Assembly: GCA_043228905.1 (NCBI GenBank)
Contig: JBHGNT010000001.1
Span: 14,322,001 to 14,386,000 of the forward strand
Direction: 5' to 3'
Source: Azolla caroliniana
Taxonomy: Eukaryota > Plantae > Polypodiophyta
DNA length: 64,000 nucleotides
Shown: one piece after another, positions 4,001 to 39,267 of the stretch
Layout of the letters: the number at the start of each line of letters is the position of its first letter
How positions within the stretch are numbered: position 1 is the stretch's first letter
Translations under genes and position numbers: made by a program
Notes under the pieces: model-generated
Database searches by the model: none
Told to the model about the DNA's origin: nothing
What the model saw: only the letters and a program-made list of their open reading frames with translations

Positions 4001-5583
4001 TCAAGACCGATGGAGATCGACGTAACACGTCATCGAGGGCTTTGGTCTGATTGTTTGATAGTCCATGTCACATTGCAATCACCTTACCACAAGCCAAAAT
4101 GACAAGTAAATCAAGTAAGTACTAGTGATAAATTTGATTTCAATTCCCTAGTTACATCATCTAGCCCTAGTAATCCCACATGTCTAGGTCAGTCTAATAG
4201 TTTCGTAGTTTTGAGTCAGGTTGATGAAATATTAAAAGAATTTAAGTCGAGCCAAAATCGAAGCCATTTGGTTGGACAACCCAGAATACGTAAAGTCATC
4301 CCCAAGTATTGGCTCCATTTTATTGAATCATGTTAGTAGCGTTTTTCCAGCATAAGTTGAGCTTAAAACTTTGAGGTGTCGTCAATTTCTTGCCTTTGCT
4401 CACTTAGATTCAGGAGCCAACTCTTGTTTTCTAGACCAAGAATTTGCTTTAACCTAGAAAATCCTATTAATTAACCTCCCTTGTCTTGCAACTGCTATAA
4501 TCATTGATGATCACTCTATTACATCTACAAACATGGTTGAAGAATTTGAGCCAATCCGAGTAATCTTAGGTAACTTGTCTTGTGTGATTTCCTTCAATAT
4601 AATTAGTAGTCCTAAGCATCCAGTTACTTGGGTTGCCTTGGTTTAAACTTCATAATCCTGAAATTGATTTGAGAAAATTACAAAAATGAGCAATCAATGA
4701 TTTCTAACGAGAACCTAAATCAACTTCCTTGTTGCTACGAACAAAGATTCAAAGCCTCACCAAATTTCAACCATCTCTCTACAAAGGTTACAAGAAGACG
4801 GATGAAAAAATGTTATGTTTGTATTTGTAGTGACAACAACTCTATCCTCTAGTTCACAAGGATCGAATGCCCTCGTCCCTACTGATTACCTAGAATTCAA
4901 AGATGTCTTCAACAAGGGTAAAGCTAGTACTCTCTCAAATCATCACCCTTATGATTGTCCTATCAATCTACAACCTAGAAAGGAGCCACTATGGGGGCCA
5001 ATATATAATGTATCACCTTCCGAGTTGAAGGCCCTCCAAGAGTATATAGATGAGCACTTGACAAATGTATTCATTTGACATTCTGTAAAACCTTTTGGTG
5101 CACCCATCTTCTTTGTCAAAAAGAAAGATGGGTCTCTAGGAGTGGCTATAGACTATTGATGAGGTTTAAACAAAATCATGGTTCAAAACAGATATGTTCT
5201 ACCATTCATATTGTCGCACGTTCGTGTTCACAAGTGGAAGGATCACGCAAAAATGGAAAGATAAGGAATATTCTGTTTGATTTTGGGGTTTATATATCCA
5301 TTTCACAAAACACAATGATACCAGTATCACACGTTCTCAAAAATTCATTGGAAAAGCTTTAAAATCCACAATTTCATAAAGTTGGAAAGTCATAAAATTT
5401 AGGCTCTGATCCAAAAGTTACGATGTGTATTTTCTCAAAAAAACAACAAGTAATGTTTTTGTTAACAAACAATCTTCATATGAAGCAACAGATTTCAAAA
5501 CATAACCTTTACAAACAGAATTTGATTACAATTTGATACCAAAATTGCATTCAAGAGTTTAGGGTTTACTCAAATCACTCCTT

Positions 5584-5960
5584 TCATGATCTAGAATCAT
5601 TACTATAGCTAATATACAAGGTTGATTGTTCCTCGTCATCTTCAGATGTACCTATTAAAGCATTGTCTTCATTTGAAACCTGATGACGTGATTCTAAATT
5701 ATGTGTTGATGACCTTATAGACTGCATTTGATTTTGGTTATCCTGCATCACCACATCCAAAACTGTACGAATCCAAAATTGGTGCCCTAGCTCATTATCA
5801 TCAATAGGTGTCTCAATTAACGTTCCCATCTTGAGTTCTTGCAAGTTTCCTTGACACCTAGCTTCAGCTACTTTTGTCCTCCTTGATCCAACATAAATGT
5901 CTCTTTGTTGTGGATGGAGCAAGTTGTCATTAATCGTATTAGGTGTAGGAAGAGGAGTTT
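5584..5960 (-). pseudogene. Remnant of a probable transposon protein C-terminus
   Basis: DIYVGSRR...LKMGTLI...DDNELGHQFWIRTVLDV. The G-x-x-FW-I-x-x-V pattern resembles C-terminal domains of non-seed-plant DNA transposon proteins (from memory, unverified). Confidence 0.35.
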
Positions 5961-6522
5961 GAGAATCACGAGGGTGTTGTTTACATCACATAAAGGGGAT
6001 TTGCATGGTCCAACTACTGACAATACAATTATCAACAATTTCTTCTTGTTCTCTAGCATTAGTGCACATGCTAAACTAACATATTAATTTGTAATAAGTA
6101 AAAAAGAAAACTAACTATAGTTATGCTTAACTAACCTTACTTAACTAACCTATTAATTAGTAACAAGTAAAAAAGAAACTAAACCTGTTGAGCAAAAGGA
6201 CATCTAGGACCGACTCCAGGTAAACGTAAACCCTAAAATGTACGGACATTTTGTTTCTAAATGAGTAATTGTAAGGCAAGGCATTAACTTGATACAATTA
6301 TAGAGTTTGGATTGTAACTTGATACATTGCATTGAATTTAAAGCCCCATGATCCCCAACTTGATAAATGTATCAAGTTGGAAAGTCAACTTGATACATTG
6401 TATGTAGTTGACCTTCCAACTCGAACGTTTATCCATTGTATCAACTACACCTCGATACATGTGTCAAGTTGGTGCACCTAGCAGCCTCAACTCAATACAT
6501 TGTATAGAGTTGACCTTCCAAC

Positions 6523-7016
6523 TGTCAAATTCTAGACTTGAACCTCTAACTTTTAACACACACAGTACATTGTGTTGTGTTAACCATATGGAAACTCTTG
6601 TGAACTGTCCACATTCGATTGTGAACTTGTATATATTCTAGAGTCTAGTGTTAGAATATTCTAGTTGTTAGTATATTCTAGAATTATTCTACACGGTGTA
6701 TTCTAAATGGGTATATTCTCAAGATATTTCTTGAGTATATTCTAGAGATATTCAATCTCGTAAATTGTATAAATACTTGTAACATCCTTGGTCCCTTTCA
6801 AGGGATTCAACACCAGTCATTGACACATCAATCTAGTATTCTTGTTTCATGCTCTTGTGCCATTCCTCTTAGCCATGTCATCGGCGCCCTATCGTAGTTT
6901 GTTCTAGTGTCTTAAGTTCCTCGCATCATCGTCTCGAGTTTTTCGCCTTGTCACATCTAGTTCGTAGCCCCATCATCCATCCTCGGTTAGAGTCTACGGT
7001 TGGTGTGTTTATGACA
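6523..7016 (+). mobile_element. Solo LTR (Tcn1-like family)
   Basis: TGTCA...TGACA termini, 5-bp TSD CCAAC (6518-6522/7017-7021), internal TATAAATA; homologous to the LTR at 11472-11672 + 16685-17008 (-). Confidence 0.85.
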
Positions 7017-7021
7017 CCAAC

Positions 7022-7734
7022 TAGCAATGGGCCTAGTTTCAGCTCAAACCGAACCGAACCGAAAAACCGTGGCTTAACAGTTTATAGGTTCAAAGATAAA
7101 TAAACGGTTTGGTTTGGTTTAAAATGTTAATAATCGGTTTCGGTTCAGTTTTGAATTTACCGGTTTATCAGCTTATCGTCTTATTAGTTTCTGTTTATGT
7201 GGTTCAGTTTAAAGGTTTATAGGTTAAAAAATAGTCATAAATATTTTTTATAGGCTCTAACTTTTAACTTTTAATTTTAAACTCTTGTTTTAACTTATTA
7301 AATTTTATATGTATTATATGTAGAGTCTCCTTTTCATTTATGATAAGTATGATGATCAAATTTATGATAAGTATAATGATCAAATTTATGATACGTATAA
7401 TGATCAAATTATGATATGTATGATCACAAAATTTATGATGAGTATGATCACAAAATTTATGATCATTTATAATAAGTATGATGATTAATATCAATAAAAA
7501 ATGGTTTGGTTTGGTTTGGTTTTGATTTATAATAAACTGGTTTGGTTTGGTTTTAAATTTTTCATAAACGGTTTGGTTTCTCCTATTCTTTAAATGGTTT
7601 GGTTTAATGGCTCGGCTCTAAACGGTTCAGTTTAAATGGCTTCATAAATTTTAAAACAATTTGGTTCGGTTTTATTATTAATAAATGGTTTGGTTTCAAT
7701 GCCAAGAAACCGAACCAAACCGGGCCCATTGCTA
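7022..7734. mobile_element. hAT-type MITE
   Basis: 12-bp TIR TAGCAATGGGCC/GGCCCATTGCTA, 8-bp TSD ACACCAAC, subterminal AAACC(G)/GGTTT repeats and an internal AT-rich ~24-bp tandem repeat. Confidence 0.9.
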
Positions 7735-8649
7735 ACACCAACTGGATACAATTTATCGAGTTTAGGCTCCTAGGTGCACCAACTCGATACGATATATCGA
7801 GTTGAAGTCCCAAGAACCTGAACTCGATATATTGTATCCAGATGGAAGGTCAACTTGATACAATGTATTGAGTTGACTTTCCAACTCGATACAATGTAGC
7901 GAGTTGACCTTCCAACTTGATACAATGTACCGAGTTGGAGTTCTAACTCAATACAATGTGATGAGTAGGAGTCCCAACTCACTACATTGTATCGAGTTGA
8001 GGTTCATGGAACTTCAACTCGATACAACGAATCGAGTTGTAGTCCAAAGTCCATACGTTATAATGAGTTGAGGCTCCTAGGTGCACCAACTCGGTACAAT
8101 GTATCGAGTTTCCATTGCATATGAGCTACTCTCTATATAATGTATGGAAGTGAGTTATTCATGAACAAGACCAAGGGTTCTGTAGTCTTTAGTTGTATTT
8201 AACTACCAAAAAATGCTAAAATTAGTCTCAACAAGCTAATTTAAATAGAAACTTTAGAACTCAAAATGGGATATTTTAGATAGGTTTGTGATTCACAGGT
8301 GATGCTAAAGTATAGGTTTTATGGCCTTTTATCTTTGAAGGCCAAAGTAATAACTTGAACCTTAGAGTAACGTTGATGTTTCTATTAGTTTAATATTAGG
8401 TCTATCGAGCCTTAGGATGAGAGACCAATTAAAAAAATTCGAAACAAATATCAGAGCTCACCCATTGAGACCACCCAAATCCCTGTCATCACCTATTCCC
8501 AAAAAGGAAAAAAACTATTATTTGATGATGATATTGTTGGGCATCCTTTTGACAAGGTCAGTTAGAAGAAAATTGTGGCTACAGTAGGAGGGAAACCCTT
8601 GCAGATAGAGATATGACCGACTATGAGTGGGCCATGACTATGAGTGGCA

Positions 8650-8925
8650 CTTGTCAATCCCTATTAGAAGCCTCAACGTCTGAAGATGCACCTGGTGGAA
8701 ATGTTCTCTAATGAAGATGATTGGATATTAGATTTGTTTTCAATTCATTGTCCCAATTGCTTGATGAAACAAATTGTATTGTTGAACTGTTATGTGAATC
8801 ATTCCTATTTTTAAATCGATGATAGGTATTACATCTACGTGTGTGTTGGAACTTTTCCACAATTCTATTGCATTGGAGAAGGATGAGGAGCAGGAAATCT
8901 TCATAAATATGAGGCTATGGGAATG
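8650..8925 (+). pseudogene. C-terminal (SAM-binding) half of a beta-class N4C/N6A DNA methyltransferase, split by a probable intron
   Basis: LVNPY*KPQRLKMHLVEMFSNEDDWILDLFS (8650-8742), ~83 bp ending in AG (8824-8825), then GITSTCVLELFHNSIALEKDEEQEIFINMRL. Matches the hPxqKP..L..Li...s..gd.vLD.F.GsGTt..a....r..i.iE.d pattern. Confidence 0.65.
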
Positions 8926-11672
8926 CCCTAATCAAGACGAGGAGGTAGGGATGAAACATATAGCAAATACAAAATGTTTTCAACCTACCTCCCGTGAGCT
9001 CATCCGTCCACTAGTTGGTGAACCGAGGAGCTTATAGATCTTGAAGATGAGCTATTAGAGAACCCCACGGTAACCAGTCTATCTAGAGTGGATATCAATG
9101 CACAAAATATCGAGGATAGTTCACAAGGAAGACGAAGACAATGATGTAGATACCCTCATAGCTATGTAAACCATTTTTATCTCGATACAATTGATGTAGT
9201 TGTCACAAACGTGTTGCTTTTAATTAAATATTTACTTTTTTTAAGGTTTTATCTTATCAATGTGGTCCTATAGATGTTTGTTGTAATGTTTCAATTATTT
9301 GTATTATATGGTGTTTAATGTTTGAATTATTTGGTTGATGTGCTTTTTTTTGTTGCACGATCTTATTATTAATTGTAGATTATGTTTTGGTCTATATTCA
9401 TTCTTTATAGCATTAGTCTATCTACATCCATTGCAACATTTATTTATTTATACAGTGTATAATGTTCGAATTATATGTATATGTGCTTTATCTTTGTCGC
9501 ACAAGCTGATTATTATTTGCAAATGAGTGTATATTCATTCATTAGAGCATTAATCTATATGCATCTGCTAAAAATTTATTCCATATTCATCAATGAAACA
9601 TTGCTTCATATTTATCCACCAATTGGGTGTATAATCCCTAAACACATTTTGTTTACTGTCAGTCACATTTTGAATTAAAGCATACTTTTATAAACACTTA
9701 AAACTTTACAATTTTATTTTCTTTCTTATTTTGAAATATTGCCAGTAGTTGGATTTAAATATAGATTAATAGCCATGTGTCCATTTAGGGTTTCCAATTA
9801 ATGATCCATGGTTGTAGGTGTTCTCATTCCTTGGTATGTATAGCTATTTAAGGGTGTTCTTCAAATATCATGAGTACTCCTTTGTATGTTTGGGTGTGCC
9901 CTCTTGCTTTAGGGTTTATGGGTGTCTCTTTCTATACACGTTTCTTATTCACTGTTGACAATTGAATGTCATCTCTATTTTGGCTCCCAATTATTTAGCA
10001 TGTTTATGGCTAAATAGGTGTCATACATGTTTGAGTGTATCTATTTTATGATAAACACAACCAAAATGAATATTTCTCAATACTTATATGTATAATTTGC
10101 TTGGGTTCTCACAAACATATACCTTTGGTATTATATCCTACAAGATCCATTAAGGATAAATTTGAATCAACTGTAATCACTAATGAATGGATCCATAGAT
10201 AAATTTCGAATACACGGTTATGCCTTTCGGTCTCACAAATGTGTGCATAGTTTTTTCAATACACGACAAATGATATTTTCTGTAACTTCTTGGATACATT
10301 CACCATAGTATATCTTGATGAGATCTTGATCTACTCCAAGACTCAAGAAGAGCATCACATACACATCCGTCAAGTCCTCCAATGCTTGTGGAAATATGGG
10401 CAGAAATGTAATTTTCATCGTAACTATGTGGAATTTCAAAGGTATGTGGTTTCACAACAAGGTATATCTATGGATCCATTCAAGGTTCAGAACATTCAAA
10501 ATTAGCAATCACCACGTTTAGTGTGTGATGTTCAAGTCAAGATGGGTTTCGAACCCACGACTTTGTCTATGTCATCAACTAGTCTAGCCGATAAATCAAA
10601 CATAGAATCATGATATAAACACCAATACATATAGGTTCAATATCTCTTTTTGATGTTCCAGAAAGTTATGGAACTTTCTAGAAGCTCCTACATGAAAATC
10701 CCTCTGCTTGCATGCAGAACTCCTGGAATTGTATAAATACAGGGGTTCACCTTGATCCCAATCAAGGTGAATAACGCCAGTTACCGAATCAAATATTCAA
10801 CTTCATCTAACTTCCTTCTACTTCTTGCTCATCTCTCAGTATTTTGTCTTCTTCTTCTTACTCATCTCTCAGTATCCTGTCTTCTGCCCTAGCTCTGCTC
10901 TACTTTTCTCTTGCCTAGCTCTGTTATGTTCTACCTTGCTCTACCCTTCCGTGACAGTTTGTTCACCTTCACATTTTCTAAACCTTAGCATCTCACATCT
11001 TACCAAGAGAATAAATCAACTCATGGAAGCCGTGCATCAACTTCAACTTGAGAATGACAACCTTTGGGAATCATTACAGAAGCTTCAAGTTGAAACACCA
11101 ATGGAACTCGAGGAAGAAAAGAACAACTCTCCTCCTGCATCAAGAAATGTTCTACCTGTAGAGCCTAGTCCCTCGTCCACCCTTTCTCCAACTCCTCTCC
11201 ATCCCACTACAGGTATGGAGCCCAAGATTAGTTTACCTGACAAGTTCAATGGCACGAGGAGGCACTTCCAAGGGTTCATAAATCAGATCAAGCTTATTAT
11301 CCAACTACAACCCTAGCGGTATGCGGATGATTTTCGTCAAGTTGGTCTCATTGGGACCCTTCTGTCAGGAGCTGCACAAGCCTAGTTTGCATCGTTGGTC
11401 GAAATGTAATCACCACTTCTACAAAATTTTCCTACCTTTCTTACAGGGTTCGAGGCAACATTTGGGGATATTGTCATGGACACACCAACCATGGACTATG
11501 ACGGATCTTGGATGACGAGGCTACGACCAATAAGTGGAACCGGAAGTGACAAGGCTAGAAACTCTAGAAGTTGTGGGCGACAAGACTATGAACATAGGAA
11601 GCTAGGGTTAAATGGAGAGCATGAAGAAAAATATGAAGATCAAGGAGACAATCTGGCATGAAAGGAGAATAT

Positions 11673-14600
11673 TGTTGGGAATCCGGTTCCTCCGGATCGG
11701 TAAGGACAAGCCAAACCAAGGACAATATAACTAGGGCAACTAGAGAGTGTAAACTTTTTTGGTGATCATCATTATTGTTGTATTGAGAGAGAGTGAGCAG
11801 AAAACAAAAAGCATTCTCTGTTGTAACCACCGATTGGTGAAGATAGAGCTCAGGTCGTTGCCTCAGAGTCTCACATTGTAGTATCCTTCTCTCATAGTGA
11901 TAGTTGTAGTCTGTGGGCTCCCATGGTTTTTACCGATTAGGATTTTCCACGTTAACATTTGGTGTCGTCTCTTCCACCTTGTTAAGTGCATTGTTACTTT
12001 TTGTTCAATCTTCCATTTGCGGTGTGGAACTCGGTTGTGGCTGAGCGCTATTTCTATCAATCTAGTATCAGAGCATGGAAGATCCATTCGGCGGCATGTT
12101 CAACTCACCAACTCCATCTACTCGGTGTAGAAGTCGAAGATTAGGGACATGCTAGTAGTAAAAGATCTATGGTTGCCGGTACACTTTGGAGATGCAAAAA
12201 CGGACAAAATAGATGCACCGACCTAGTAAGTGATGCACATGAAGACGACAGCCTACATTCGATGCTTCATCGACATGAGCCTTTATAACAACTTCAATGA
12301 GGAGAAGAAGGCCCACAAAGCTCGTGGAGAAGATAGGCATCATATTTGAGAACAAGAATGTCGTAAATTGAGTCTCGGTCTTTCGGAAGTTAGTGAGACT
12401 CAGATTTCAAGATGGCTCCAGCATGGTGGAGCACATGAATGTTGTCTAGGGGCTTATAAATCTGACAACCTCGCTGGAGGTACCTCTAGCTGATGAGGTA
12501 CTCGCGTTGTTGCTTCTTGGTTCCATCTTGAATAGATGGGAGACGTTGGTTGTCACTTTGGGCATTGCCGGGCCAAAAGGGAAACACCTATCCCTAGCGA
12601 GAGTAAAATCAAGCTTGCTGGATGAAGAGGCTCTTCAGAAAGACAAGGAAGTGATCTCCGACTCAAAAGCTCTAGTTACCGAAACCGACACACCATGGGG
12701 AAGAGGCCGGAATCGGAGTCCCCAAAACTGGGACAAATCGAGGACAAGGTCGAAGTCAAGGGGGGTGCCCACATGCTTCTATTGTAGGAAGTTGATGCAT
12801 TTCCAGAAGAACTACCTACATTACCGAAAAGAGAAAGGGTCTGACAATGCCGACTCGAAGAAGAGTTCGGACCGCAAGGGTTCAGATCAGAAAGGGACGT
12901 CGGCAATCGCGACAAGCGAAGAAGAACTATTGCTCATCATCGAGGAGAGAGAACTACATCTTGTCAACGATGAAAGGACGTGGGTGGTCCACTCCGGAGC
13001 GTCGTTCCATCTAACTCCCGACCGGAAGTGCTTCGCATCCTATAGAGTCGGAGATCATGGTTGTGTGAAGATGGGGAATGAAGGTGCATGCCAAATTGTC
13101 GGCATAGGAGACGTGTGGCTGATTACGTCAACTGGGTGCAAGTTGTTGTTGACAGATGTCTGACACATTCCGGAGATTCGGTTGAACCTGATATCAACTG
13201 GCCAGTTGGATGATGAAGGCCTCGAATCCAGAATGTATTCATGAAGTTCAGGAAAGGAAGCTTGATCATGGCCCGAGCTCGAAAGATCAACACAATGTAC
13301 CTAATGCATGCCCATATTTTCCGGGACGAAGTGAATGTGGCAGTGGACACTATCGGTCACTTGTGGCACAAGAGGTTGTGCCACATGAGTAAAAAAGGGA
13401 TGCGAAAACTTTCTAATGATAACCTTATTCCGGAGGTGAAATACGTGCAGCTTGAGAAGTGCACTGACTGTTTGGCCGGCAAGCGGAACCGAACTTCTTT
13501 CCAAACCCGACCACCGACAAGCAGAACCGAACTTCTTTCCAAACCCGACCACCGACAAGACGGAAAGAACCGTTGGAGCTCGTGCATACCAATGTATGCC
13601 AGGTGGACACGAAGTCACATGCTAAGTCGTAGTACTTCGTGACGTTCATAGATGACCACAAACGAAAGTTGTGGGTCTCACTGTTGAAGACAAAGGATCA
13701 GGTACTGACCGCCTTCAAGGAGTTCCACGCGAGAGTAGAAAGAGAAACCGGCCGGAAGTTGAAGGCAGTTCGAGCCAACAACGATGGAGAGTACCAGGGG
13801 AAGTATGAGGAATATTGTCAGTCAAAAGGAATCTGACTCAAATTTATTGTGCCGAAGACACCGGAGCTGAACGGTTTGGCCAAAAGGATGAACCGGACCG
13901 TAATGGAGAGAGTCCGGAGCAAGCTTGTACAATGACGTATGTGCTAAATAGATCACCCTCAGCACCCTTGGACAGAGACACACTGTAGAGAGTATGGACC
14001 GGTAAATATGTGTCTTACTGACACTTGACGGTGTTCGGTTGTCTCGCCTATGTACATGTAGCAAAGCACAAGAGAGCAAAATTAGATCCAAAGTCTTGGC
14101 CATGCATATTCCTTGGGTATGACGATGATGAGTTTTGGCTATCGAGTGTGGGACTTGGTCGACAAGAAGGTCTTTCAGAGCCGAAATATAGTCTTCATGG
14201 AAGACGAGACCATTGCCGACTGGGAGTTAAAGAAGAAGATAGTGGACTCCGGGTCGACCGACGGAGATCGGTTGGAAGATGAAAGGACACATATGGTTGG
14301 ACCGACCGAAGAAGAAATGGACACCGGAATTGGACAAGACCCTGAATCACATTCGGATGAAGAATAGATAGAGGAGTCGGTGGTCCAAAACTAAGGACGG
14401 AGATATGCTCTCAGAGAGAGAAGAGCTCCCCAGAGATTTCCCGATGCAATGCGTGTACTGCTAACCGACGAGGGGGAGTTGGAAGCTTTGAAGAAGTAGT
14501 GAAAGACACCAACGACCAAAAATGGTTGAGCACCATGCAGGATGAAATGGATTCTCTGCATGAGAACTGTTGAGAATCAAGCTCAACTTGGTCTAGTGTG

Positions 14601-16684
14601 TGAACTCACCTTGAGAGTGAAGAGACACTCCAACGGTCAAGAGTCACCATTATGTCACCACTTGCTCCATGAGCCTTGTAGTTAATAAGCTCCATGAGCC
14701 TTGTAGTTAATGAAGAGAGAGGGTGACTACATAAAGCACCCTCCTCCCATCTTGTATAATGTCGTGTCTTTCTCCTTTGTCAATATACTTTTACATTGCG
14801 TATTCCTTGTCTCTCTCTCTCTCTCATACACACACATAACTCATATCTCTTCTGCTTCACAAGAATCCATCTCTTGATTCTTTATAAGAACCATACATAT
14901 AAACTGACGGAGCTTCCAAAAGGAAAGAGAGCGTTCAGGAACAAGTGGGTGTACAAGTTAAAATCGGGAGACGCCGGAAATCCACCAAGATACAAAGCCT
15001 GGATCATTGTGAAGGAGTTCCAACAGAAGAAAGGAGTGGATTTCGACGAGATCTTTGCTCCTTCATGACCGATCACGGATACCACAAGTCGCAAGCTGAC
15101 CACTGCATATTCATGAAGAAGTTCGAGAGAGGACACTTCCTAATATTGCCGTTGTACTTGGACGACATGTTGATCGTCGGATGGGAACATATCAAGATCG
15201 GAATGCTGAAGAAGGCCTTAAGACGATCCTTCTCAATGAAAGATATGGGTCCGGCGAGGCCGATCCTGGGAATGCACATAATCCGGGACCAGTCGAAGAA
15301 ACAGTTGTGGTTGTCACAGGAGAAGTACGTGACAAAGGTGCTTCAAAGGTTCAACATGTCAAACGCTAAGTCGGTCGGGTCGACACTCCCGAAAAATTCC
15401 AAATTTCTGGAAAGCAGAGCCCAAAGACAAAGGCAGAGAAGTCGGAAATGATGAAGATATCATATGCCTCTGCAGTCGGAAGCCTCGTGTACGCAATGGT
15501 GTATACACGATCAGACATCAGATATGCAGTTGGAGTGGTTAACCGGTTCATGAGCAATCCGGGAAGAGAACATTGGGCCGCCGTCAAGTGGATAGTCTGA
15601 TACCTAAAAGGCACCTCGAGCTTGTGCCTTCGATTTGGCTCAGATAATCCCCAACTTGAAGGATTGACCAATTCAGACATGCTGGCTTATGCAGATACTA
15701 ACTGGTCTACATCCGGATATGTCATGCCATTGCAGGGAGAGCCGTATCGTGGCAGTCAAGGCTACAGAAGTTCGTTGCATTGTCGACAACGGAAGCGAAG
15801 TACATGGTAGCTGTGGAAGCCGGCAAGGAAGTAATCTGGATGAGGGATTTCATCAGAGAATTGGGGATCCGGCAGGAGGAATACCGGCTCTACTTCGACA
15901 GTCAAAACATCATCCACCTTGCAAAGAACGCAGCCTACCACTCTAGGATGAAGCAAATCCAGCGTAGATACCACTTGCCTTGGGAGAGAGTAGAAGATCA
16001 AGAGTTCACTCTGGTGAAGATCCACACCGAGGAGAACGGGTCAGATATGTTGACCAAGGTGTTGTCAGTTGACAAACTGGACAAGTGCCAAAGATGGAAC
16101 AGATTGACAAGGAGCCCCATGTTGGAGTGAAGGGGGAGTTTGTTGGGAATGTGGTTCCTCTGGATGGGGTAGGACGAGCTGAATCGGATGATCCAAAGCA
16201 AGGAGCCGGATCAGATGGACCCGGAAGGGGTCCGGCCGGATCCAATGTTAACCATGAGAAGGGACATATTGGTAAATATGTTCCTATGTGCCATTGAGGC
16301 CATACTTGCAAATAACCCGAAAAGTTATATGAGTATAAATATAACTAGGGCAACTAGAGAGTGTAAATGTTTTTTGGTGATCATCATTATTGTTGTACAA
16401 AGAGAGAGAGAGAGAGAGTTAGTGGAAAACAAGAAGCATTCTCTGTTGTAACCGCCGGTTGGCGAGATAGAGCTTGAGGTCGTTGCCTCAAAGTCTCACA
16501 TTGTAGTATCCTAGTCTCATAGTGATAGTTGGAGTCTGTGGTCTCCCATGGTTTTTCTCGATTAGGGTTTTCCACGTTAACATTTGGTGTTATCTCTTCC
16601 ACCTTGTTAAGTGCATTGTTACTTTCTATTCAATCTTCCATTTGCTGTGTGGAACTCGATCGTGGCCAAACGCTATTTCTATCA
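11673..16684 (+). mobile_element. Degenerate Ty1/copia element
   Basis: LTRs 11673-12059 and 16141-16684, PBS TAGTATCAGAGC (tRNA-iMet), PPT GAGTGAAGGGGGAG, TSD AATAT/AATAC; gag zinc knuckle, protease, IN, RT (YLDDML) and RNase H fragments. Confidence 0.9.
14568..14886 (+). mobile_element. Solo copia LTR inside the RT region
   Basis: TG...TA (decayed CA) termini, TSD AGAAC; host frame SLHEN|HTY is restored on removal; same family as 35020-35412. Confidence 0.85.
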
Positions 16685-17081
16685 AATACTAGATTGATGT
16701 TTCAATGATTGGTGTTGAATCCCTTGAAAGGGACCAAAGAGGTTACAAGTTCTAAGATTGAATATCTCTAGAAAATACTTGAGAAATATATCTAGAATAT
16801 ACCCATCTAGAATACACCATAGAATATTTCTAGAATATACTAAAGACTAGAATATTCTGGAATGTAGTATATGCTAGACTATACAATACTAAATTATTAT
16901 ATGTAAATACATGCTCATATCCAAATGATTGAGCATGACATCTTGTTGACATGAGGTTACATGTTCAATACTCACCAACTATCTAATTTATGTCACTATG
17001 TCGTGGCATTATCCTCCCCTTTACGGCTGCCTTTTCGAAAGCATGGTGTAGGGGTGAATGGGAATTGGCGCACCAAAAATC

Positions 17082-17464
17082 ATGAGCAACCATGTGTTGT
17101 CCTCACTGGAGACCGGAACACCAATGGACGTGAGTGACCATGTGCGGTCTTCATCGGAGACAGGAACACCAATGGGAGTGAGCGACCATGTGCAATCCTC
17201 ACCAGAGACACAAACACCAATGAACGTGAGCGACCATGTGTGGTCCTCACCGGGAACTGGAACAACAACGGGCATGAGAGATCATGTGTGGTCCTCACCA
17301 GAGACACGAACACCAATGGATGTGAGCGACCATGTGCGGTCCTCACCAGGAATGGAACACCAACGGGCGTGAGCGACCATGTGGGGTCCTCACCAGAGAC
17401 ACAAACACCAATGGGCGTGAGCGACCATGTGTGGTCCTCATGGGGAATTGGAACAACAACGGGT
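17082..17464. repeat. 48-bp tandem repeat, ~8 copies, next to the PPT of element C
   Basis: Unit GTGAGCGACCATGTGCGGTCCTCACCAGAGACACAAACACCAATGGGC. Confidence 0.9.
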
Positions 17465-19750
17465 GAAGGAGTGAAGGTGAAGTGTTGACTAGACTTCTTC
17501 TATCATGAGAGGGTAAATAATCGAGGTTGACCCAAAACACAGCACAAATGGTAGCATTAACGAGAAACCGACACAATCCGCACCAGGAAAGTGAGCGGTT
17601 GTAACCCCCACCAGAACTAGAAGGTGAGTGATCGAAATCAATCCTCGCCAAAGGAAAGTGTAGTGAAACTTGAACCAAAATGAAAATGGATTGCAAGCAA
17701 GCAATGATTTGATCCCCACCAGGAAAGTGAACGGTTGTAACCCCCACCGGAATAGTGAAGGTGAGCGATTGAAAATCAATCCTCGCCAAAATGGTGATAT
17801 AAAATAATACCTATAGATGATGGCAATGACAATGAGGGCAGAACAATGACAATAATGACAGACCATGAAAAGTCATATTGATGATGATGAAGGTTGGGTG
17901 ACGTAATGTTTATGAAGACAACAAGTGGTGCTAAAAAAGGATGATGTTGAAGACGAGGCAGTGAAGACAATGATGACAAGGAAGTGTCTCTAGAAGGAAC
18001 AACTATGACTATGGTGATGATGGCATCTCTAAAACCAAGGATGTTGATGACGGTAACTCTGGAAGCAACAATGGTGATGATGGTAACTCTAGAAGCAAGG
18101 GCGATGATGAAGATGGGTGATGCTTCCAGTTGGAGGGTATTCAAAATGTCACTAACTATGTAATTTATGTCACTGTGTCGTGACAGATACGGACCGACGT
18201 CGAACTGCCATTACCAAACTCTATTTATTACATCAAGGTATTTGTCAGGTATCCGTTTATGCCTCTGAATTTAGACAATTTGCATGTGATGTTCAGTGGG
18301 ATGGCCAAGAGCTCTACGACCATTTCCGTCAAGGCCTTTGAACCAAGATTAAAAATTTACTACTCAACTTTCTGGAGCCTACTTCATTGTCACAAGCCAT
18401 CATGCAAGAAGTTAGTTGTGACAATCGACTATTTGAGCTTCGTCAAGAGGAAGGAGCAACTTCAAGGTGGCAACCCTCTTTGAGATCTCCTTCATCCTCA
18501 TCATGCGATGACCCTGTGCCGATGGAAATTGATTGAGCTCGACCCCACATTTCAAATGACATTGTTATGATCGTGGCCCACATTTCATCTCAATATTCTA
18601 GAAACACTTGCTTGGGAAATCTCTTGTAAATTCTCTCTTCATGCCATCATCCACAAAGTGATTGTCAAACTCAGTGCACAAATCGGACACTAGAACAATA
18701 TCTTCAGTGTTTCATCAATTACCAACATGATGATTGGGTAGATTTTCTACACTTTGCATAGTTTGCATACAATAATTCAGTTCATTCCTCAATAGGATAT
18801 ACTGCATTCTTTGCAAATGTAGAATACCATCCGCGTTGGACAATGATTGAACATCCAAAAATCTCGAAGAACCTTATGGTTGAGGATAGCTACATCAACT
18901 CCAAGAAGTTCATGGTGCAATTTCTCACTACTTGCATACCGCTCTGTTACCGGTTACGGTTACACGGTGCGTAACCCTCAGTCCTTCGAGGTTAGGGTCA
19001 AGGTGATTATGGTTTAGGGATGAACACGTACGTCGTGACCGTGGTATAGATGACTATGTACTAATCTCGTAAGTGCTGACCTAATCGTGGAGACTCCGGA
19101 GATTTGGAGGATGGCTACAACCGACTCCTTACGCAATAGCGCGCCCCTGCATATGAGACTCGACATGGAAATGAACTCGACACGAACAGAGATAAGAATT
19201 ACGAGAACATAACAAGTCAAGCAAAACAAAGACTATATTGCAGAGATTGAATACAAAATTATTGCTCGTTATTACAAGTTTTCCATGCCCTTTATTTATA
19301 GGGTTATGGTCGGTTATGCTCGGCGCATGAACCATTACACGCATTCATAATGCTTCGGCTTTTACTACAGCTGCTACTACTCCCTCATTATTACACTTCG
19401 GCCCCCACCTGTCTACATCGCATGCCATAACCGTCCATTTTGTCTTTCCTTCTCAACTTTTCCCACTTGTCCGTCCAAGGCGGTCAACACATGGTACACC
19501 AATGGGACAGTGCATGCACGTCAAATCCATAGAAGACCTTCATTCGTCATCAAAGATGTCCAGGATGTTTGGTCCCAAACAGTCTGGTTCTGTAGAAACT
19601 ACAGAGGGTGTCGTGGTCTGCGTCATAGGCGTGGCTTTGAGGGGACTGTTAGGCTCGGTTGTCTCAACTTTGGGGGGCCCTGTGTGCGTTGTCAGTTCTG
19701 GTACGGGCGGGGCAGTGGGTTCTATTGGTTCCGGTTTCACAAGACCTTTG

Positions 19751-19884: not shown

Positions 19885-22800
19885 ACAAAGGATCTTTTCT
19901 ATTCAATAGAAAAACAACAATACAACCAACCTTACAAAAAGGTTACAAGGTCACTATATATAGTGACCGACTTCGGGCAACTACCATTTATGCTAATTAC
20001 ACAAATGGCCCAAACTTGATCTATACAAGAGGATAGTGTGAATACGTCCATTATACACTTGTATTCGACACTCCCCCGTAATGGGCGTATACATGGGTTA
20101 TCTAAGATTACAGGTATAAACCTAGGTTCTCGGACATATCAGTTTTGTTCGAGTCGGCAGTGTCCGAAGGCAGAAGACCGGACTGGTCGGGTCGGAAGAG
20201 TTGAAGCCGATCATTAGGGAACTGATGTCGGTTGTCTGAAACCATCCTGCGCTGTGTCCGGCTCTAACCGGACTGGTTTGTCGTTACGCCCATTTGATGC
20301 CGAAGGGACCGAAAGCGGTCTGCCGAAAGACACTTGGTCATTCCATCTGCGACATTGTCGGTTGTAGATATTTTCTCTAGACCGATTTTCCCTGAAATGA
20401 CGCAGTCCCGAACGAAGTGATATCGAACGTCGATATGTTTGGAGGCGTTGTGGTGAACCGGATTTCTCGACAAGGCAACAACACCTTGACTGTCGCTATA
20501 GACAACTGGAGCCGAGTCATGGTCGACTTGCCGAAACGTGTGCGCCAGCCGGCCGAGCCACAAAGCTTCTTTTGCAGCGTCGGACGCAGCTACATATTCT
20601 GCTTCGGTCGTTGAGGTCGTTGTGCACTCCTGAAGTTTCGACTTCCACGAAATTGCTCCATTGCCGAATTTGAAGCAGTATCCGGTTGTTGATTTCCGAC
20701 TGTCTATACAGCCGGCGAAGTCCGAGTCGGTGTAACCGACTACGCCTGAGGTTGAGTTCGGACCGAAAAGAATGCCGTGATCTTTTGTGCCAGCCAGATA
20801 TTTGAACACATGCTTGACTGCGTTCCAATGCGATCGGCCAGGATTGTGCATAAATCTGCTAACGACTCCTACGGCATGAGAGATATCAGGCCGTGTCGCG
20901 ACCATCAAGTACATAAGGGAGCCGACTGCCGGTGCATACGGTACCGACTTCATATCTTCCCCCTCCGGACCGGATGTCGGGCAGTCTCGCTGAGAGAGCC
21001 GAAGATTCATGGGGAGCGGGGTTGAAGTAGATTTGGCTGATTGCATGTTGAAGCGTTCCAAGACACGTCCGATATAGTCGGTCTGAGACAAAAAAAGATG
21101 TCGTTTATCGCGATGCCGACTAATCTTCATGCCAAGTATGTGTCGTGCCGGACCGAGGTCCTTCATGGCAAACTTCAACCGCAGTTGCCGAATGAGATCG
21201 GCAAGTTCGCCCGCGTGGCGTCCAGAAATTAGCATGTCGTCCACGTAAATGATGAGGAAGATGGGTGATCCATCTTGAGCTGTGTTGGTAAAAAGACAAT
21301 GGTCCTCATCGCTTTTTGAGAAGCCGATCGATTGGATGAAGTCGTCGAACTTCTTGTACCATTGTCGCGGTGCCTGTTTGAGGCCGTATAGACTCTTCCT
21401 GAGTCGGCAGACTAGATGTTCTTGGCCAGTTGCCACGAAGCCTTTTGGCTGTTCCATATAAATTTCCTCTTCAAGATCACCATGGAGGAAGGCTGTTTTG
21501 ACATCTAGCTGAATCAGCTCCAAGTTGTCGGCTGCCACTACGCCGAGTAGAAAACGAAGGGTTGTCATTTTCACCACTGGTGAAAAAATCTCGTCGAAGT
21601 CGACGCCATATTCTTGTCGGAAGCCCTTCGCAACTAATCTGGCCTTGTACTTTGGGGTGGTCGAATCAGACGTCTCTTTTAGTCGATAAACCCACTTGCA
21701 AGGAAGAGCACGTCGATTCTTAGGTAGTTCGACCAGATCCCAAGTCTTGTTTGCCCGAATGGAGTGCATTTCCGACTCCATCGCCAGATGCCAGGTGGCT
21801 GAATCGACAGATGTCGATGCTTCTTCGTAAGACGTCGGTTCGCCAACGTCGGTGAAGAAAATTCCAGGAGAATACCTCTCCGGAGGTTGCGACAGTCTCT
21901 CGGATCGTCGAGGTATGATTGGACTGGTCGCATTGGGTATCGAGGTCGGATGGTCCGAAAGCGAATTATTCTGCTGTGCCGAGTCGGAGTTGTCCGAGTC
22001 GGTGGTGTAAGGTTCAGCTACCCGTGAAGCTGACCGTGTGTTAAGAGCGGGGCCTTCTTGAAGGGTCGGCACATCGGAAAATGTTACCCTTCGGACTTCG
22101 ATCGGTTTTTCGACTGATGGATTCATAGCCGACTCGTTGAACACAACGTCCGAACTTCGAACGATTTGTCTGCGTTCGGGGTCCTAGAGTCGGTATCCCA
22201 TTTCGCCGTCTGATCCATATCCAAGGAAAATGCATTTCCTGGACCGAGGTGCAAGTTTTCGGCGATCATCTTTCGGAATAAGGGCGTACGCCTCGCATCC
22301 GAAGATCCTCAGCTTGTCGTAATTCGGCTTACTGCCGATCCATAGTTCCTGAGGAATTTGAAGTCCTAGAGGTCTGCTTGGCGACATATTGATTATGTGT
22401 ACTGCCGTGAGTAGAGCCTCTGCCCAGAAGCCATCCGACAGTCCGGAGTGTTGGAGCATGGAAACTATCCGTTCTTGGATTGTCCGATTCATGCGTTCTG
22501 CAATCCCGTTTTGCTCCGGACTGTGTGGTGCCGTAAATTCACGTCGGATGCCGCGTTGTCGGCAGAATTTGACGAATTCTTCTGATTTGAACTCTCCCCC
22601 ATTGTCGGTCCGAAAGCATTTCAGTTTTCGGTCAGTTTGATTTTCTACCATAGCGAGCCAATCGGAGAAGATCGAGAAGACACGATCTTTGGTGCGAATT
22701 GGATAAGCCCACACCTTTCGAGTCGAATCGTCAATAAAACTGACGAAGTAAGAAGCACCGCCGAGAGACTGATGCGGCATTGGGCCACAGACGTCCGAGT

Positions 22801-25753
22801 GGACTAAATCGAGAGGTCTCGTTTCTCTTGGTGCTGATGTCGAGTGTGATGCGGCTGCTTGTTTGCCATACTGGCAATGTTCGCAGAATTGATGGTCCGA
22901 GAAGGAGAGTTTAGGGATGTATCCGGCTCTAGATAGGTGCGTAATGCCGGCCTTGCTGAGGTGTCCTAATCTTCTGTGCCATAGTGATGACACAGGAATA
23001 TCCACCAAAAACAGGTTACCCTCTCTGAGCGTAACATGTAACGGATACAGTGAGTGTATCTTGGGTCCTCTAGCAAGCAGGAGGTTCCCCCTGTGGAGTG
23101 TCCACCCTCCCGAAGAAAAACCGGCATGAATGCCGTCTTCATCGAGTTGTCTGACTGAGATCAATGGCCTTGAGAGCTCGGGTACATGTCGGACATTGTG
23201 AAGTACAAGTGTAGAGCCACCTGCAAGGTTGAGCTCTACTGTGCCGATTCCGATGATGTCACAGTGTTGCGAGTTGCCGACTCGAACTGAGTCGGAGTTG
23301 TTGGGATTTCGGTCCCTCCGGATGGGATGTCCAGAGATGAATGACGGCAAGCCCGGTTGCGGTTACGGAGCCGGATGATGAAGACCCTGGCTACGGAGCC
23401 GGATGATGAAGACCCCGGCTACGGAGCCGGATGATGAATACCCCGGCTACAGAGCCGGATGATGAAGACCCCGGTTACGGAGCCGGATGCTGAAGACCCC
23501 GGTTACGGAGCCGGATGACGAATGTACCCGGAGAGAGATCCGGATGCGGGGACATATTTGTGAATATGTTTTGCCAAGAGCCCTTGAGGCTATATTTGTA
23601 AATAGCCCGAAAGTCATATGTGTATAAATATGACTTAGGGCAAACAGTTTAAATGTTGTTGCTCATTTTTATGTGAAGTGATAGCAGCCGAGAGAGAGAG
23701 ACGAAGAGGTCGTTGCCTCTGTGTATTACCGCCGCCTGTGGCGAAGACAGTGAGCTCAAGGTTGTTGCCTTGCAGCTTCACCAGTGTACATCCCTGTTCA
23801 TAGTGATAGTTGGAGTTTGAGGACTCCCGTGGTTTTTCCCATTTAGGGTTTTCCACGTAAAATATCCAGTGTACCTTTCTCTCTATTGTCCTCGTGCACT
23901 TTGTATTTCCCGTTTTCTGTGAGTTGATCCTATTCCTCGGTTGTGGCCGAGCATTGTCTACAACAGGAGTGACGGATCGTATATTGCCGAAATTGGGATC
24001 GATGAGGAGTCACGTGAAATGACGCGCCCGAATCTAAGAGCCATGTGCTCGATTCTTCAGTCGTGAGCAGAACTTCTGATCCGACTGGATTTTCGATTGA
24101 TAGTATATTCGGGTCGTTTGGTAGCACATCAGCTGAGAAGCTGACGTAATTGATCTCCTCATGCCGGCCACTCTTCTTGTCTGATTTCTGAGACTTGTCG
24201 TTCTTGTTCTTGAGTGCGCGGCAGTCGGCTTTGATGTGTCCGGGTTTCTTGCAATAGTTGCAGATTCGATTATCCCGTGACTGGCTCCGTCTTCGCTGAT
24301 TGTTCGGCTGCCGTGAGGAATCTCTTCCTCGTATGTTCGATCGGTCTGTCGAACCTTGTACTACATAAGCGTCGTCTGTTGAGTCTTTGGCGAAAGACTT
24401 TCTCCAAGCTGCTTCGGTCAGGATTGTGCTCGTGACTTCGGAGTATTTAACAGTCGTGGTTGACGCGTTGCACACGGTTGTGACGAAAGTTTCCCATGAT
24501 GAGGGAAGGCTGCTCATGAGTATCATTGCTCTGAGTTCATCCTCGATTGCCGTCCCCTGAGATGAGATTTGGGAGCTTATGCTTTCGTACTCATTGAGAT
24601 GTGTTTGAACCGAATCTGATTCTTTCATCCGCAAGTTGTAGAGGCGCCGGATCAGAAACATCTTTGTTGCAGCGACCTTCTTTTCGTAAGTGTCCGACAG
24701 TGTTTTCCACAGTTCGAATGCTGTCGTACACGATTGCACCGTAAAGTATACCGATTCCGATAGGTGCATCCGAATCGTGGCGCGGACGATTCTGTCCAGC
24801 TTCTGCCACTCAATTGGTTTGTATCCTTCTGGAGGTTCTTCATTTTCGATGGGATCAATTTGCCCCTTGACTATGAGATAGTCCTGCATTTGCTCCTTCC
24901 AGAAGTTGAAGTTCGATCCATCGAACTTTCGTAGACTCATTTCTGACGAGCCGGATGTTGATGCCATCAAATTTGGTTTCGGTTGACGAAGCTCGGTTCA
25001 GAGTTGACTACGAACCTTGTTGGAGTGCAGCCGGTTGGCTCACCCGATATCGTTCTAGTCGGATTTGAACCCAAGTCGGTTCGGCTTCGGATATATGTAT
25101 TGTTGAACTTGCTCGAATTGACTCCGGTAACTTGAGGGACAGAACCGACTGGTCTTCCCGAATGTTGCCGAGTCGGAGTGAGCCCGGTTCGCTTCCGAAT
25201 ATATATGCAAAAAACCGATTATTGAAGCCGATTGTCTGGACCGATTCTGCTTCGGGTGACTGCAGCGACGAGAGAGACGGATCCAACTGATCCTCCCGAA
25301 TGTCGATCAGCCAGATGAAGCACGAATTTGGGTTGTTGTCTTGAGACCGATCTGCACCGAGTGGTTACAATAAGCGGCGAGCAGCGTTTGATGACCTCTT
25401 CGGATGCCGTTTAACCGAGTGGAGCACGATCGTGTCAATGTTGCACAAGGGGATTTCACCTCGAGCGGTTACGATCACAAGAAACAGAGTACAACCGGCT
25501 GGCTTACTCCAAGCGAAGATGATCTGACGCGATGAGATGCAAACCTCGTTTTTCTTCTTCTTCTCTCTTCTTCGAATGACTCAAGAAATCGAATGTTGTG
25601 CAGGCTGAGACGACGGCCGACAGCGGGATGAAGGACCGAATACTGTGCAGGCTCTGATACCAAATGTAGAAGACAAGGCCGTCAATGCGGAAGATCTGAT
25701 AGCATTCGATTCGTGTTGAATACCTGCATATGACAGATTCCAAGATCTTGTGC

Positions 25754-37881: not shown

Positions 37882-39267
37882 ATGGGTGAGCTGCCAGAAG
37901 GGCGAGGGATCCTCTCAAACCTTGCTCTTCTCTTATGCCAATACAGTAAACAGAAGGCATTTTACCATGGTAAGAAAGCCCATCATCATATCTATGAATC
38001 AGGTTATGAAAATAGTAGATTTTTAGCTAATTGGGTCATTCAAATGTATGGAGAGTGTGGGCTTATGGATGATGCTAGGGCTGTTTTTGATCAAATAAGA
38101 TGCCCAAATACACATTCTTGGACCATTCTTCTTGCAATGTATGCACTAAATGGCCATATGGATCATGTGGAGAATGTCTTTTGTAGAATGACAGAGCGTA
38201 AAGTTGTCTCTTGGAATGCTTTGATGACAGCTCATGTGCGAATCGGCTCAAAAAACGAAGCTGTACATGTCTTTTATAGAATGCATTGTGAAAGTGTTCA
38301 AATGGACAATGTAAGCTTTGTTTGTGTGTTAGATGCTTGTTGTGGCCTACACGAAGGAAAGAGAATACATGTTTCTCTTGTAGAATGTGGCTATATGCTG
38401 GACATTGTGGTTGGGACAGCTCTTCTTACTATGTATGGACGATATCAAAGTGTGGAAGATGTGAAGATTGTGTTTCGTAACATGGTAGATAGGGATAAAT
38501 CATGTTGGAATGCAATGATGGCTGCATTAACTCAAAATGATGAGGGTGAAGAAGCTTTAGATGTGTTTTATCAGATGCAATGCATAGGGGAAAAGCCTGA
38601 TATTGTCACATTTGTATGTGTACTTGATGGGTGTGCAAGCATATGCACCACATTAGGGCAAGTTATTCATGCAACTATAATTGAACATGGAATTGAAGTA
38701 GAGCATATTCTCGGTACAGCTCTTGTTGACATGTATGGGAAGCATGGAAACTTAGAGGATGCATTTCATGTGTTCTCTAAAGCACCTCATACCAATGTTA
38801 TCTCGTGGAATGCCATCATAAGTGTGTTTGCTCAAAATGGGTGTGGTAGCAAGTCCTTAGATTTGTTCAATCAAATGCAAAGACAATCCATTAAGCCAGA
38901 CTATACAACTTTCATTAGTGTCCTTACTGCATGTAGCCATGCGGGGTTGGTGAATCTTGGATGGTATTTCTTTGTTTACATGGGTAGGAACCATGGAATA
39001 TCAATAACTATTGACCATTGTTGTTGTATGATTGATCTTTTGGGCCGAGCAGGGCACTTAGAGGAGGCTGAATATTTGCTGAATAAAATCCCTCTTGAAG
39101 TCGATGATGTCACATGGCGTTCTCTGCTTGGTGCATGTAAAATACATAGTGATATTGAACGAGGAATACGTATTGCAAATAGATGTTTGTCATTGCATCC
39201 AGTTGATGCTGCACCATATGTAACTCTTCTAAATATCCATGCCACATCTGGTAATGAGATCTGTTAG
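37882..39267 (+). CDS. PLS-class pentatricopeptide repeat protein with E domain and no DYW (organellar RNA-editing factor type)
   Basis: 461-aa intronless ORF with repeated SWNA.. / VGTALVDMYGK motifs, LTACSHAG, CMIDLLGRAG and E-domain WRSLLGACKIH..AAPYVTLLNI. Confidence 0.93.
   Translation: MGELPEGRGILSNLALLLCQYSKQKAFYHGKKAHHHIYESGYENSRFLANWVIQMYGECGLMDDARAVFDQIRCPNTHSWTILLAMYALNGHMDHVENVFCRMTERKVVSWNALMTAHVRIGSKNEAVHVFYRMHCESVQMDNVSFVCVLDACCGLHEGKRIHVSLVECGYMLDIVVGTALLTMYGRYQSVEDVKIVFRNMVDRDKSCWNAMMAALTQNDEGEEALDVFYQMQCIGEKPDIVTFVCVLDGCASICTTLGQVIHATIIEHGIEVEHILGTALVDMYGKHGNLEDAFHVFSKAPHTNVISWNAIISVFAQNGCGSKSLDLFNQMQRQSIKPDYTTFISVLTACSHAGLVNLGWYFFVYMGRNHGISITIDHCCCMIDLLGRAGHLEEAEYLLNKIPLEVDDVTWRSLLGACKIHSDIERGIRIANRCLSLHPVDAAPYVTLLNIHATSGNEIC

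Follow-up and report, generated by a model that had tools for sequence, protein, structure and literature searches.

A dead Sola1-like transposon copy in Azolla caroliniana and its family with a predicted ParB-methyltransferase gene and an intronic palindrome array

A short stretch (8650-8925) of a 64-kb window of the Azolla caroliniana genome (64,000 nt; assembly GCA_043228905.1, contig JBHGNT010000001.1, positions 14,322,001 to 14,386,000) resembles a bacterial-type DNA amino-methyltransferase, which raises the question of what carries such an enzyme in a fern and what it may do there. A sequence-only reading had proposed that the stretch is the relic of a spliced β-class methyltransferase gene encoded by a DNA transposon. 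Coordinates below are those of the window. Frame +1 from 8650 reads LVNPY*KPQRLKMHLVEMFSNEDDWILDLFS, the stop being TAG, followed by 83 AT-rich nucleotides (8743-8825) that close with AG at 8824-8825; past this spacer, frame +2 reads GITSTCVLELFHNSIALEKDEEQ. These pieces thus lie where the reading had placed them. In a Pfam search the first peptide alone remained below the cut-off of PF01555 (19.5 bits, E 0.001; cut-off: 26.7) and the second matched no Pfam family. Exons of an intact copy elsewhere in the genome matched the two window pieces with 78% and 52% identity (E 2e-13 and 2e-33), which rules out chance likeness, and one exon of that copy scored 38.3 bits against PF01555. The significance of the relic therefore derives from its paralogues and not from the window peptides alone, and the proposed PF01555 membership holds for the intact copies.

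The window copy has no complete PF01555 domain: motif IV is deleted, motif I is cut and motif X contains the stop. Two TGTTTT-like repeats flank an 18-bp deletion that took away the last part of motif I, glycines included, and the GT splice donor, so that the last codons of 'DLFS' could stem from the start of the intron. The sequence GACTATGAGTGG occurs twice (8619-8630 and 8637-8648), and at the deletion junction (8633-8648) exon 2 is fused to exon 5, with the loss of ~2 kb including the ParB domain and the catalytic motif DIPY. The claim that this copy is dead and the suggestion that its catalytic motif was lost at the duplication were both confirmed. Among 25 loci fetched with window positions 8300-9200, the identical junction occurs at seven distinct places, which rules out a lesion private to the window copy. 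The 18-bp deletion is later; it is present in three junction-sharing loci, and the donor is retained in L003, L007 and L009 of these loci and in the sister copy L020. A 4.3-kb sister copy, 91.9% identical to the window copy over 3722 aligned bases, lacks the 1.2 kb inserted into the palindrome array of the window copy (an LTR-like piece and a MITE). All three sister derivatives carry both terminal inverted repeats (TIRs) and their own 4-bp target site duplications (TSDs), showing that the deleted form was moved in trans. We conclude that the ~2-kb deletion defines a non-autonomous subfamily that went on transposing.

The window copy extends from its left TIR at 5215 to ~10192, lies inside a Ty3-type reverse transcriptase and has lost its right end (Table 1). 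It is a dead, non-autonomous deletion derivative of a Sola1-like TIR DNA transposon. The opposite-strand gene that had been noticed at 5584-5960 is present as a remnant, which is not an intact gene but the last ~240 residues of a transposase; it contains an internal gap and stops, and its catalytic core is deleted, a reading based on 260-bp and multi-kb gaps of the sister copy C15w relative to a fuller relative. The start codon of the first-exon remnant appears to be mutated. By the length of its target duplication, the MITE is presumably hAT-like; seated in the palindrome array, it has the TIR TAGCAATGGGCC, GGTTT-rich subterminal repeats and a 24-bp tandem repeat. The other late insertion, the LTR-like fragment, has an inverted relative (85-94% alike) ~10 kb downstream. 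Decayed Ty3/gypsy-type reverse transcriptase flanks the element on both sides (4760-5212 and 10193-10510); the element appears to have inserted into it, and a deletion seems to have removed the right element end and a short part of the reverse transcriptase.

Table 1. Features of the transposon copy in the window
Feature	Position	Strand	Basis
Left TIR, first two bases altered	5215..5250	+	Differs from the lineage A/C TIR at 3 of 29 bases; 33-nt match (90.9%) with the right TIR of an intact copy
Remnant of DUF7869 (Sola1-like) transposase, C-terminal residues ~686-926 only	5587..6051	-	tblastn 49% and 55% to the intact 927-aa protein
Remnant of short first exon of the ParB-MTase gene, followed by GT donor at 6220	6185..6219	+	Resemblance by eye to exon 0 of lineages A and C; inferred
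First intron of the ParB-MTase gene, with palindrome array and two later insertions; AG at 8398-8399	6220..8399	+	
Left part of the palindrome array, with 3 degenerate copies of AACTCGATAC-N3-GTATCGAGTT	6316..6511	.	≤5 mismatches in 20
Later insertion, LTR-like fragment	6543..7013	.	Missing in sister C15w (gap 6543-7738); matches 16685-16858 in inverted orientation
Later insertion, MITE with 12-bp TIRs and 8-bp target duplication ACACCAAC	7022..7734	.	
Right part of the palindrome array, with 11 degenerate copies at intervals of mostly 31-40 nt	7740..8110	.	
5' remnant of long second exon, residues ~12-116, with stops; downstream ParB domain deleted	8400..8636	+	tblastn 44% and 67%
Deletion junction, GACTATGAGTGG twice, exon 2 joined to exon 5	8619..8648	+	
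MTase exon 5, remnant with motif X (NPYQKP, a stop replacing Q) and the beginning of motif I	8637..8734	+	
Last intron without donor (18-bp deletion); acceptor AG 8824-8825	8735..8825	+	
Last exon: end of motif I, motif II (LEKD), acidic tail; stops and frame changes	8826..9169	+	
3' non-coding part of the element; sister likeness ends at 10192, ~240 bp short of the lost right TIR	9170..10192	+	

To describe the family, we compared copies across the genome. Window positions 8300-9200 gave 610 candidates, and the 40 that were scored contained 49 matches. PF01555 gave 904 candidates, all 150 scored ones exceeding the cut-off, and DUF7869 (PF25273) gave 1179, of which 150 were scored. The 20-kb surroundings of 40 copies were picked from the top Pfam matches, and the sample therefore leans to well-kept copies. 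Ten lineage-A copies are 98-99.8% identical over ~9.17 kb and end sharply; in lineage B, ten copies have ~7.6 kb in common. The TIR of lineage A (36-37 bp) begins with AACACGTTCGCG and that of lineage B with AACACCGGG; across the examined copies TIRs are 29-37 bp long. A 4-bp TSD flanks 10/10 lineage-A copies, all eight lineage-B copies with both ends in reach and six of seven further copies with two ends; in the seventh it is one base off. The 29-base form of the A/C TIR has 676 exact matches in the 523-Mb genome (reversed control: 0). High-copy, transposon-borne homologues with TIRs and TSDs rule out a single-copy host RNA or protein methyltransferase, and chromosome-scale contigs, introns and TSDs rule out bacterial contamination.

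In intact copies the ParB-MTase gene lies head to head with the transposase gene. The latter, on the minus strand, is a single frame of 927 aa that matches DUF7869 (E 1.8e-51, Pfam search); it is full length in 4 of 10 lineage-A copies, with 921 aa in a fifth. Its conserved stretches DGMDQ, LDN..RENKN and GHTHDHID may correspond to Sola1 motifs. Ends, TSD length and element size agree with Sola as summarised in the available part of PMC10741241, and by eye 15 of the first 19 TIR bases of a fern Sola1 entry (Cibotium cluster_4009, Table S2 in the accessible material of PMC12973397) are those of lineage B. The family is thus an abundant Sola1-like cut-and-paste TIR transposon of 7.6-9.2 kb when intact. 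The predicted transposon with its own spliced methyltransferase gene and a head-to-head partner is borne out by these copies, with five predicted GT-AG introns, and the partner, left without identity by the sequence-only reading, proved to be the transposase. Searching for intact paralogues, as that reading suggested, had yielded the intact copies, the partner gene, the TIRs, the 4-bp TSDs and a legible catalytic motif, DIPY.

Three side observations concern these ends and copies. Seven exact same-strand matches of one TIR variant lie within 200 kb (G000:C2:21046900-21242861), which suggests tandem amplification or a segmental repeat holding element ends. Family copies are nested or adjacent at L051-L052, L071-L072 and L097-L098, with lineage A within lineage B and C copies. 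In the same Table S2 of PMC12973397, as far as available, the representative sequences of cluster_4008 and cluster_4009 look swapped relative to the listed TIRs.

The gene opposite the transposase is predicted to comprise six exons and five GT-AG introns and to encode 974 aa in lineage A and 968 aa in lineage B. A stop-free full-length frame of 2925 nt is present in 5 of 11 lineage-A copies; in lineage B only 1 of 13 copies is stop-free, which counts against the explanation that we prefer below. Reads of one run of unknown kind cover parts of the gene and no joints, two other runs cover nothing, and these reads are uninformative on splicing. The methyltransferase motifs (DIPY at ~692, NPYQKP at 827, DLFSGTGT at 852 and LEKD at 874) follow the order IV then X, I, II, which is the permuted order of the β class. 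The methyltransferase is thus the C-terminal part of a fusion which, going beyond the sequence-only reading, is by its predicted translation a 974-aa protein with a ParB-fold N-terminal half. A 24-sequence profile aligned with most of M.MboIIA (residues 7-248) and placed DIPY on its DPPY (E 7e-12). DIPY lacks the first proline of (D/N/S)PP(Y/F), and this departure from the canonical DPPY also counts against our preferred explanation; a DLPY variant is known in prokaryotic relatives of another clade (PMC4738411, from part of its supplement). For the Adiantum homologue P0086, a structure model (pLDDT 78.7) had CcrM, M.BceJIV and M.MboIIA as top matches (E 4e-14 for CcrM to 2e-12), with the bdelloid 4mC enzyme close behind. 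A β-class Rossmann fold is accordingly predicted on the Adiantum protein. Compared with the PF01555 enzymes M.MboIIA, CcrM, M.RsrI, M.BceJIV and M1.HpyAVI, the family shares the motif order IV...X-I-II, the full-domain profile match and the predicted fold. It differs in DIPY for DPPY, the ParB-fold N-terminal half, five predicted introns and location on a DNA transposon, and structural sequence identity is 12-20%.

Which base such an enzyme would modify bears on a further claim, kinship with the N4-methylcytosine (4mC) writers of bdelloid rotifers and Marchantia. The enzyme might write 4mC, for example on the CG of the palindromes described below, and so block host 5mC there; it shares its structural class with bdelloid N4CMT and M.PvuII, and the palindrome core usually starts with CG. 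We consider this very unlikely: SPPY was found in no homologue seen, with DIPY in four lineages and 46/54 related metagenome loci, and N6-adenine enzymes outrank N4-cytosine enzymes in both searches, by small gaps. The aspartate at motif IV, a guide to the base only as a rule of thumb (PMC8885841, available part), and the top rank of N6-adenine enzymes favour 6mA over 4mC. Absence of SPPY rules out membership among the 4mC writers N4CMT and MpDN4MT1, and with DIPY in place of SPPY or DPPY the kinship stands at class level only. Bdelloid N4CMT and Marchantia MpDN4MT1, as described in the available parts of PMC8885841 and 10.1101/2021.02.12.428880, are likewise bacterial-type β-class amino-methyltransferases in eukaryotes; they are host genes with SPPY that write 4mC, whereas the Azolla genes are element-borne, high-copy and read DIPY.

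The N-terminal half matched no family in sequence searches of Pfam and PHROG. Its structure model (pLDDT 80.6) resembled ParB, Noc, KorB, Spo0J and sulfiredoxin, with ParB/Noc at E 5e-6 in Foldseek; VIA matched it to PadC (Z 10.0, rmsd 2.8, 97 aligned) and to a pNOB8-like ParB (Z 8.6, rmsd 4.9, 203 aligned). The model predicts a nucleotide-binding fold of ParB/Srx type with a helical DNA-binding domain after it. In the Atlas the nearest named clusters were DUF3723 (score 0.96). A two-chain model gave a dimer score of 0.35, compared with 0.00 for the best of three controls, with at least 64% of contacts agreeing between runs and pLDDT of at least 73. For the same mark, eukaryotic pairs passed in 17 of 29 cases and single chains in 0 of 30. 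The predicted homodimer may owe its pass to likeness to solved ParB dimers. CTP-binding ParBs carry a GxxR arginine motif. The family reads GGSHSAEARR at this site, with GG and DHN nearly invariant, and GGSHS in place of GxxR makes nucleotide binding by this half doubtful.

We compared four lineages, using majority versions of A, B and C and a single copy for D. In the methyltransferase core, pN between lineages was 0.06-0.26 and pS 0.62-0.87 (A-C: 0.06 vs 0.80); where pS exceeds 0.75, decay through host 5mC may have inflated it. Between B and D, dN was 0.079 and dS 1.34, compared with 0.102 and 0.712 in the transposase core. DIPYGF, NPYQKP, DLFSGTGTT and LEKD are invariant across the four lineages, with synonymous sites saturated. 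The ParB-MTase gene is under strong purifying selection in all four lineages. This selection, the fixed head-to-head linkage and the position-specific palindrome array argue against a captured cargo gene without a role for the element, or one acting on host DNA or RNA elsewhere, which we regard as scarcely probable.

Homologues are annotated as gene models in the ferns Ceratopteris (71% to the ParB half), Adiantum nelumboides and A. capillus-veneris, in Ginkgo (46%) and in the liverwort Riccia sorocarpa; the Ceratopteris, Ginkgo and Adiantum models, themselves predictions, run through the sites of the last four introns. A search with the DIPY exon gave no longer proteins among 356 candidates. 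From 117 metagenome loci, 80 were kept; they look as if they came from a single series of samples and may belong to close relatives of the host. The 54 that match the DIPY exon include, besides those with DIPY, one with GIPY and seven with no motif in the matched part. A transposase match was found in 13 loci; in all 12 with at least 3.5 kb upstream it lies upstream on the opposite strand, and in one it lies downstream. A pattern scan with single proteins, sensitive to close relatives only, detected no such relative among prokaryotes and viruses. At motif IV, more distant homologues have DAPY, DIPH or DLPR, and some lineages may therefore be inactive. Among Logan contigs, P0182, P0115, P0170 and P0177 hold the whole methyltransferase domain in one frame, as transcripts or intronless genes; three of the four read DLPR and may be inactive or of other chemistry.

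The non-canonical motifs DIPY, DAPY, DIPH and DLPR would also fit a catalytically weak or dead protein that uses the methyltransferase fold for DNA binding or base flipping, as a transposase co-factor or an anti-silencing scaffold modelled on VANC or on the second proteins of Harbinger and CACTA elements. Methyltransferase domains of DIRS1 type have been judged inactive (PMC4738411, in the parts available), and VANC works through tandem target motifs in its element (PMC5735166, available part). Invariance of motifs I and II and of the D and Y of motif IV at saturated synonymous sites, together with the DIPY count among related loci, makes such a protein quite unlikely in our judgement.

The palindrome array had been placed between the two genes. 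It is present, but in the family it lies within the first intron of the ParB-MTase gene, within ~1 kb of the start codons of both genes. The palindrome is AACTCGATAC-N3-GTATCGAGTT in lineages A and C and AATCCGATGC-N3-GCATCGGATT in lineages B and D. All four share the core GATRC-N3-GYATC in introns that are otherwise unlike. Of 41 metagenome loci, 36 have the core upstream of the long exon (151 sites in 39,965 bases); none of 31 has it downstream, and 126,209 bases of gene body contain no copy. The three-base spacer accounts for 177 sites in these loci, compared with 0-6 sites for spacers of 0-2 and 4-7. Four palindrome variants had no match in the plant TIR supplement, but its sequence entries may be truncated, and this negative carries no weight. 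A conserved core with fixed spacing in unlike introns is the trace expected of a dimeric reader, and we infer that the ParB half reads the palindromes. In the window copy the 14 palindromes are degenerate, their decay being partly C>T/G>A; the array thus gave this copy no protection.

The simplest account of a mobile unit that combines a conserved enzyme, a conserved reader of predicted ParB fold and a palindrome array at a specific position is self-targeted methylation. Dimers of the ParB half would bind the first-intron palindromes of their own element, the fused methyltransferase domain would then methylate adenines on the bound element, and the mark would keep the element expressed or mobile; deletion derivatives, with both TIRs and the array retained, were moved in trans. 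On this account, on which our confidence is evenly balanced, the window copy is a dead, deleted member of a Sola1-like family whose intact copies encode a fusion that likely binds its own GATRC-N3-GYATC sites as a predicted dimer and likely favours expression or mobility of the element. A more specific form is doubtful, though possible: a ParB clamp might load on the parS-like intron palindromes and spread the fused methyltransferase, and the resulting 6mA self mark might counter host 5mC silencing, in a lineage across land plants. If true, the element would carry a complete read-and-write module of bacterial style, and plants would possess a naturally occurring epigenetic system other than 5mC that is addressed by sequence and present at hundreds of recent insertion sites.

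An active, self-targeted enzyme might instead restrain the element. KorB represses, and Dam controls IS10 and IS50. By analogy, ParB bound to the array between divergent promoters, together with methylation of ends and promoters, might limit the transposase or tie transposition to replication. The array's distance of ~1 kb or less from both start codons, KorB among the structural matches (Z 8.7, but rmsd 12.5) and the coexistence of hundreds of copies with the host would fit. Gene-less non-autonomous derivatives kept the array and spread, however, which fits a positive role in cis at least equally, and we consider restraint unlikely. Self-targeted methylation in favour of the element has a parallel in DAM retrotransposons, whose amino-methyltransferase has been proposed to favour their own activity, although 6mA did not rise in E. 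coli (10.64898/2026.05.21.726589, available part). VANC (PMC5735166) offers a further analogy for a role in favour of expression.

The DAM-carrying DIRS/LTR retrotransposons (10.64898/2026.05.21.726589 and PMC4738411, parts available) are likewise eukaryotic transposable elements with a prokaryote-type amino-methyltransferase. They are retrotransposons, with a reverse transcriptase or tyrosine recombinase, and carry a Dam-type domain with an NPP motif, whereas the Azolla family is a TIR DNA transposon with DUF7869, a β-class enzyme with DIPY, a ParB fusion, introns and the array. The words 'Sola', 'ParB' and 'land plant' are absent from the text of the preprint 10.64898/2026.05.21.726589. For Sola, neither a ParB-MTase second gene nor a palindrome array is mentioned in the available parts of PMC10741241 and PMC12973397. 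Phage ParB-MTase fusions and ParB-terminase loci (PMC4738411, in part) also have a ParB-like domain ahead of a β-class methyltransferase; P0236, phrog_67 and phrog_498 belong here, and the sequence likeness is weak only (P0236: E 1e-6). VANDAL elements with VANC (PMC5735166, available part) are plant DNA transposons with an accessory protein and its tandem target motifs. VANC induces loss of host methylation, whereas the Azolla accessory protein is predicted to write a mark. DUF3723, to which the nearest Atlas clusters belong, is a cargo gene conserved in Starships, mobile elements of fungi that rely on a tyrosine recombinase; in the available part of 10.1101/2021.12.13.472469, a methyltransferase fusion is not mentioned, and the Azolla ParB half has no Pfam match to DUF3723.

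In the mostly open literature searched, which did not include Repbase, we found no description of a DNA transposon with a ParB-fused β-class methyltransferase, and a prior mention is possible; the parts covered of the survey PMC4738411 hold no such transposon clade. The transposon-borne ParB-methyltransferase system is apparently undescribed. Element-borne amino-methyltransferases are known in retrotransposons, and the same literature gave none for a DNA transposon or with ParB and its own array. Two open questions, whether 6mA in land plants is genuinely written by an enzyme and by what means transposons counter silencing, become directly testable in this family, which offers candidates for the writer and for its recognition site together with hundreds of young loci. 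With its 13-15 bp address, a compact ParB-MTase might also serve as a targeted epigenome tool. The window copy is a relic only, and the interest rests in the family.

Elsewhere in the window, direct repeats 4625 bp apart (11776-12060 and 16401-16685, ~91% alike) surround a decayed Copia-type polyprotein and probably form an LTR retrotransposon with it. A tandem array of ~9 copies of a 48-bp unit occupies 17023-17492. Near-identical Copia-type polyprotein regions lie in opposite orientation at 20267-24997 (-) and 48571-52239 (+). The only clear host-gene candidates are an AP2-like frame (72-1019, -) and a 461-aa open frame (37882-39264, +) that by eye resembles a plant PLS-type PPR protein.
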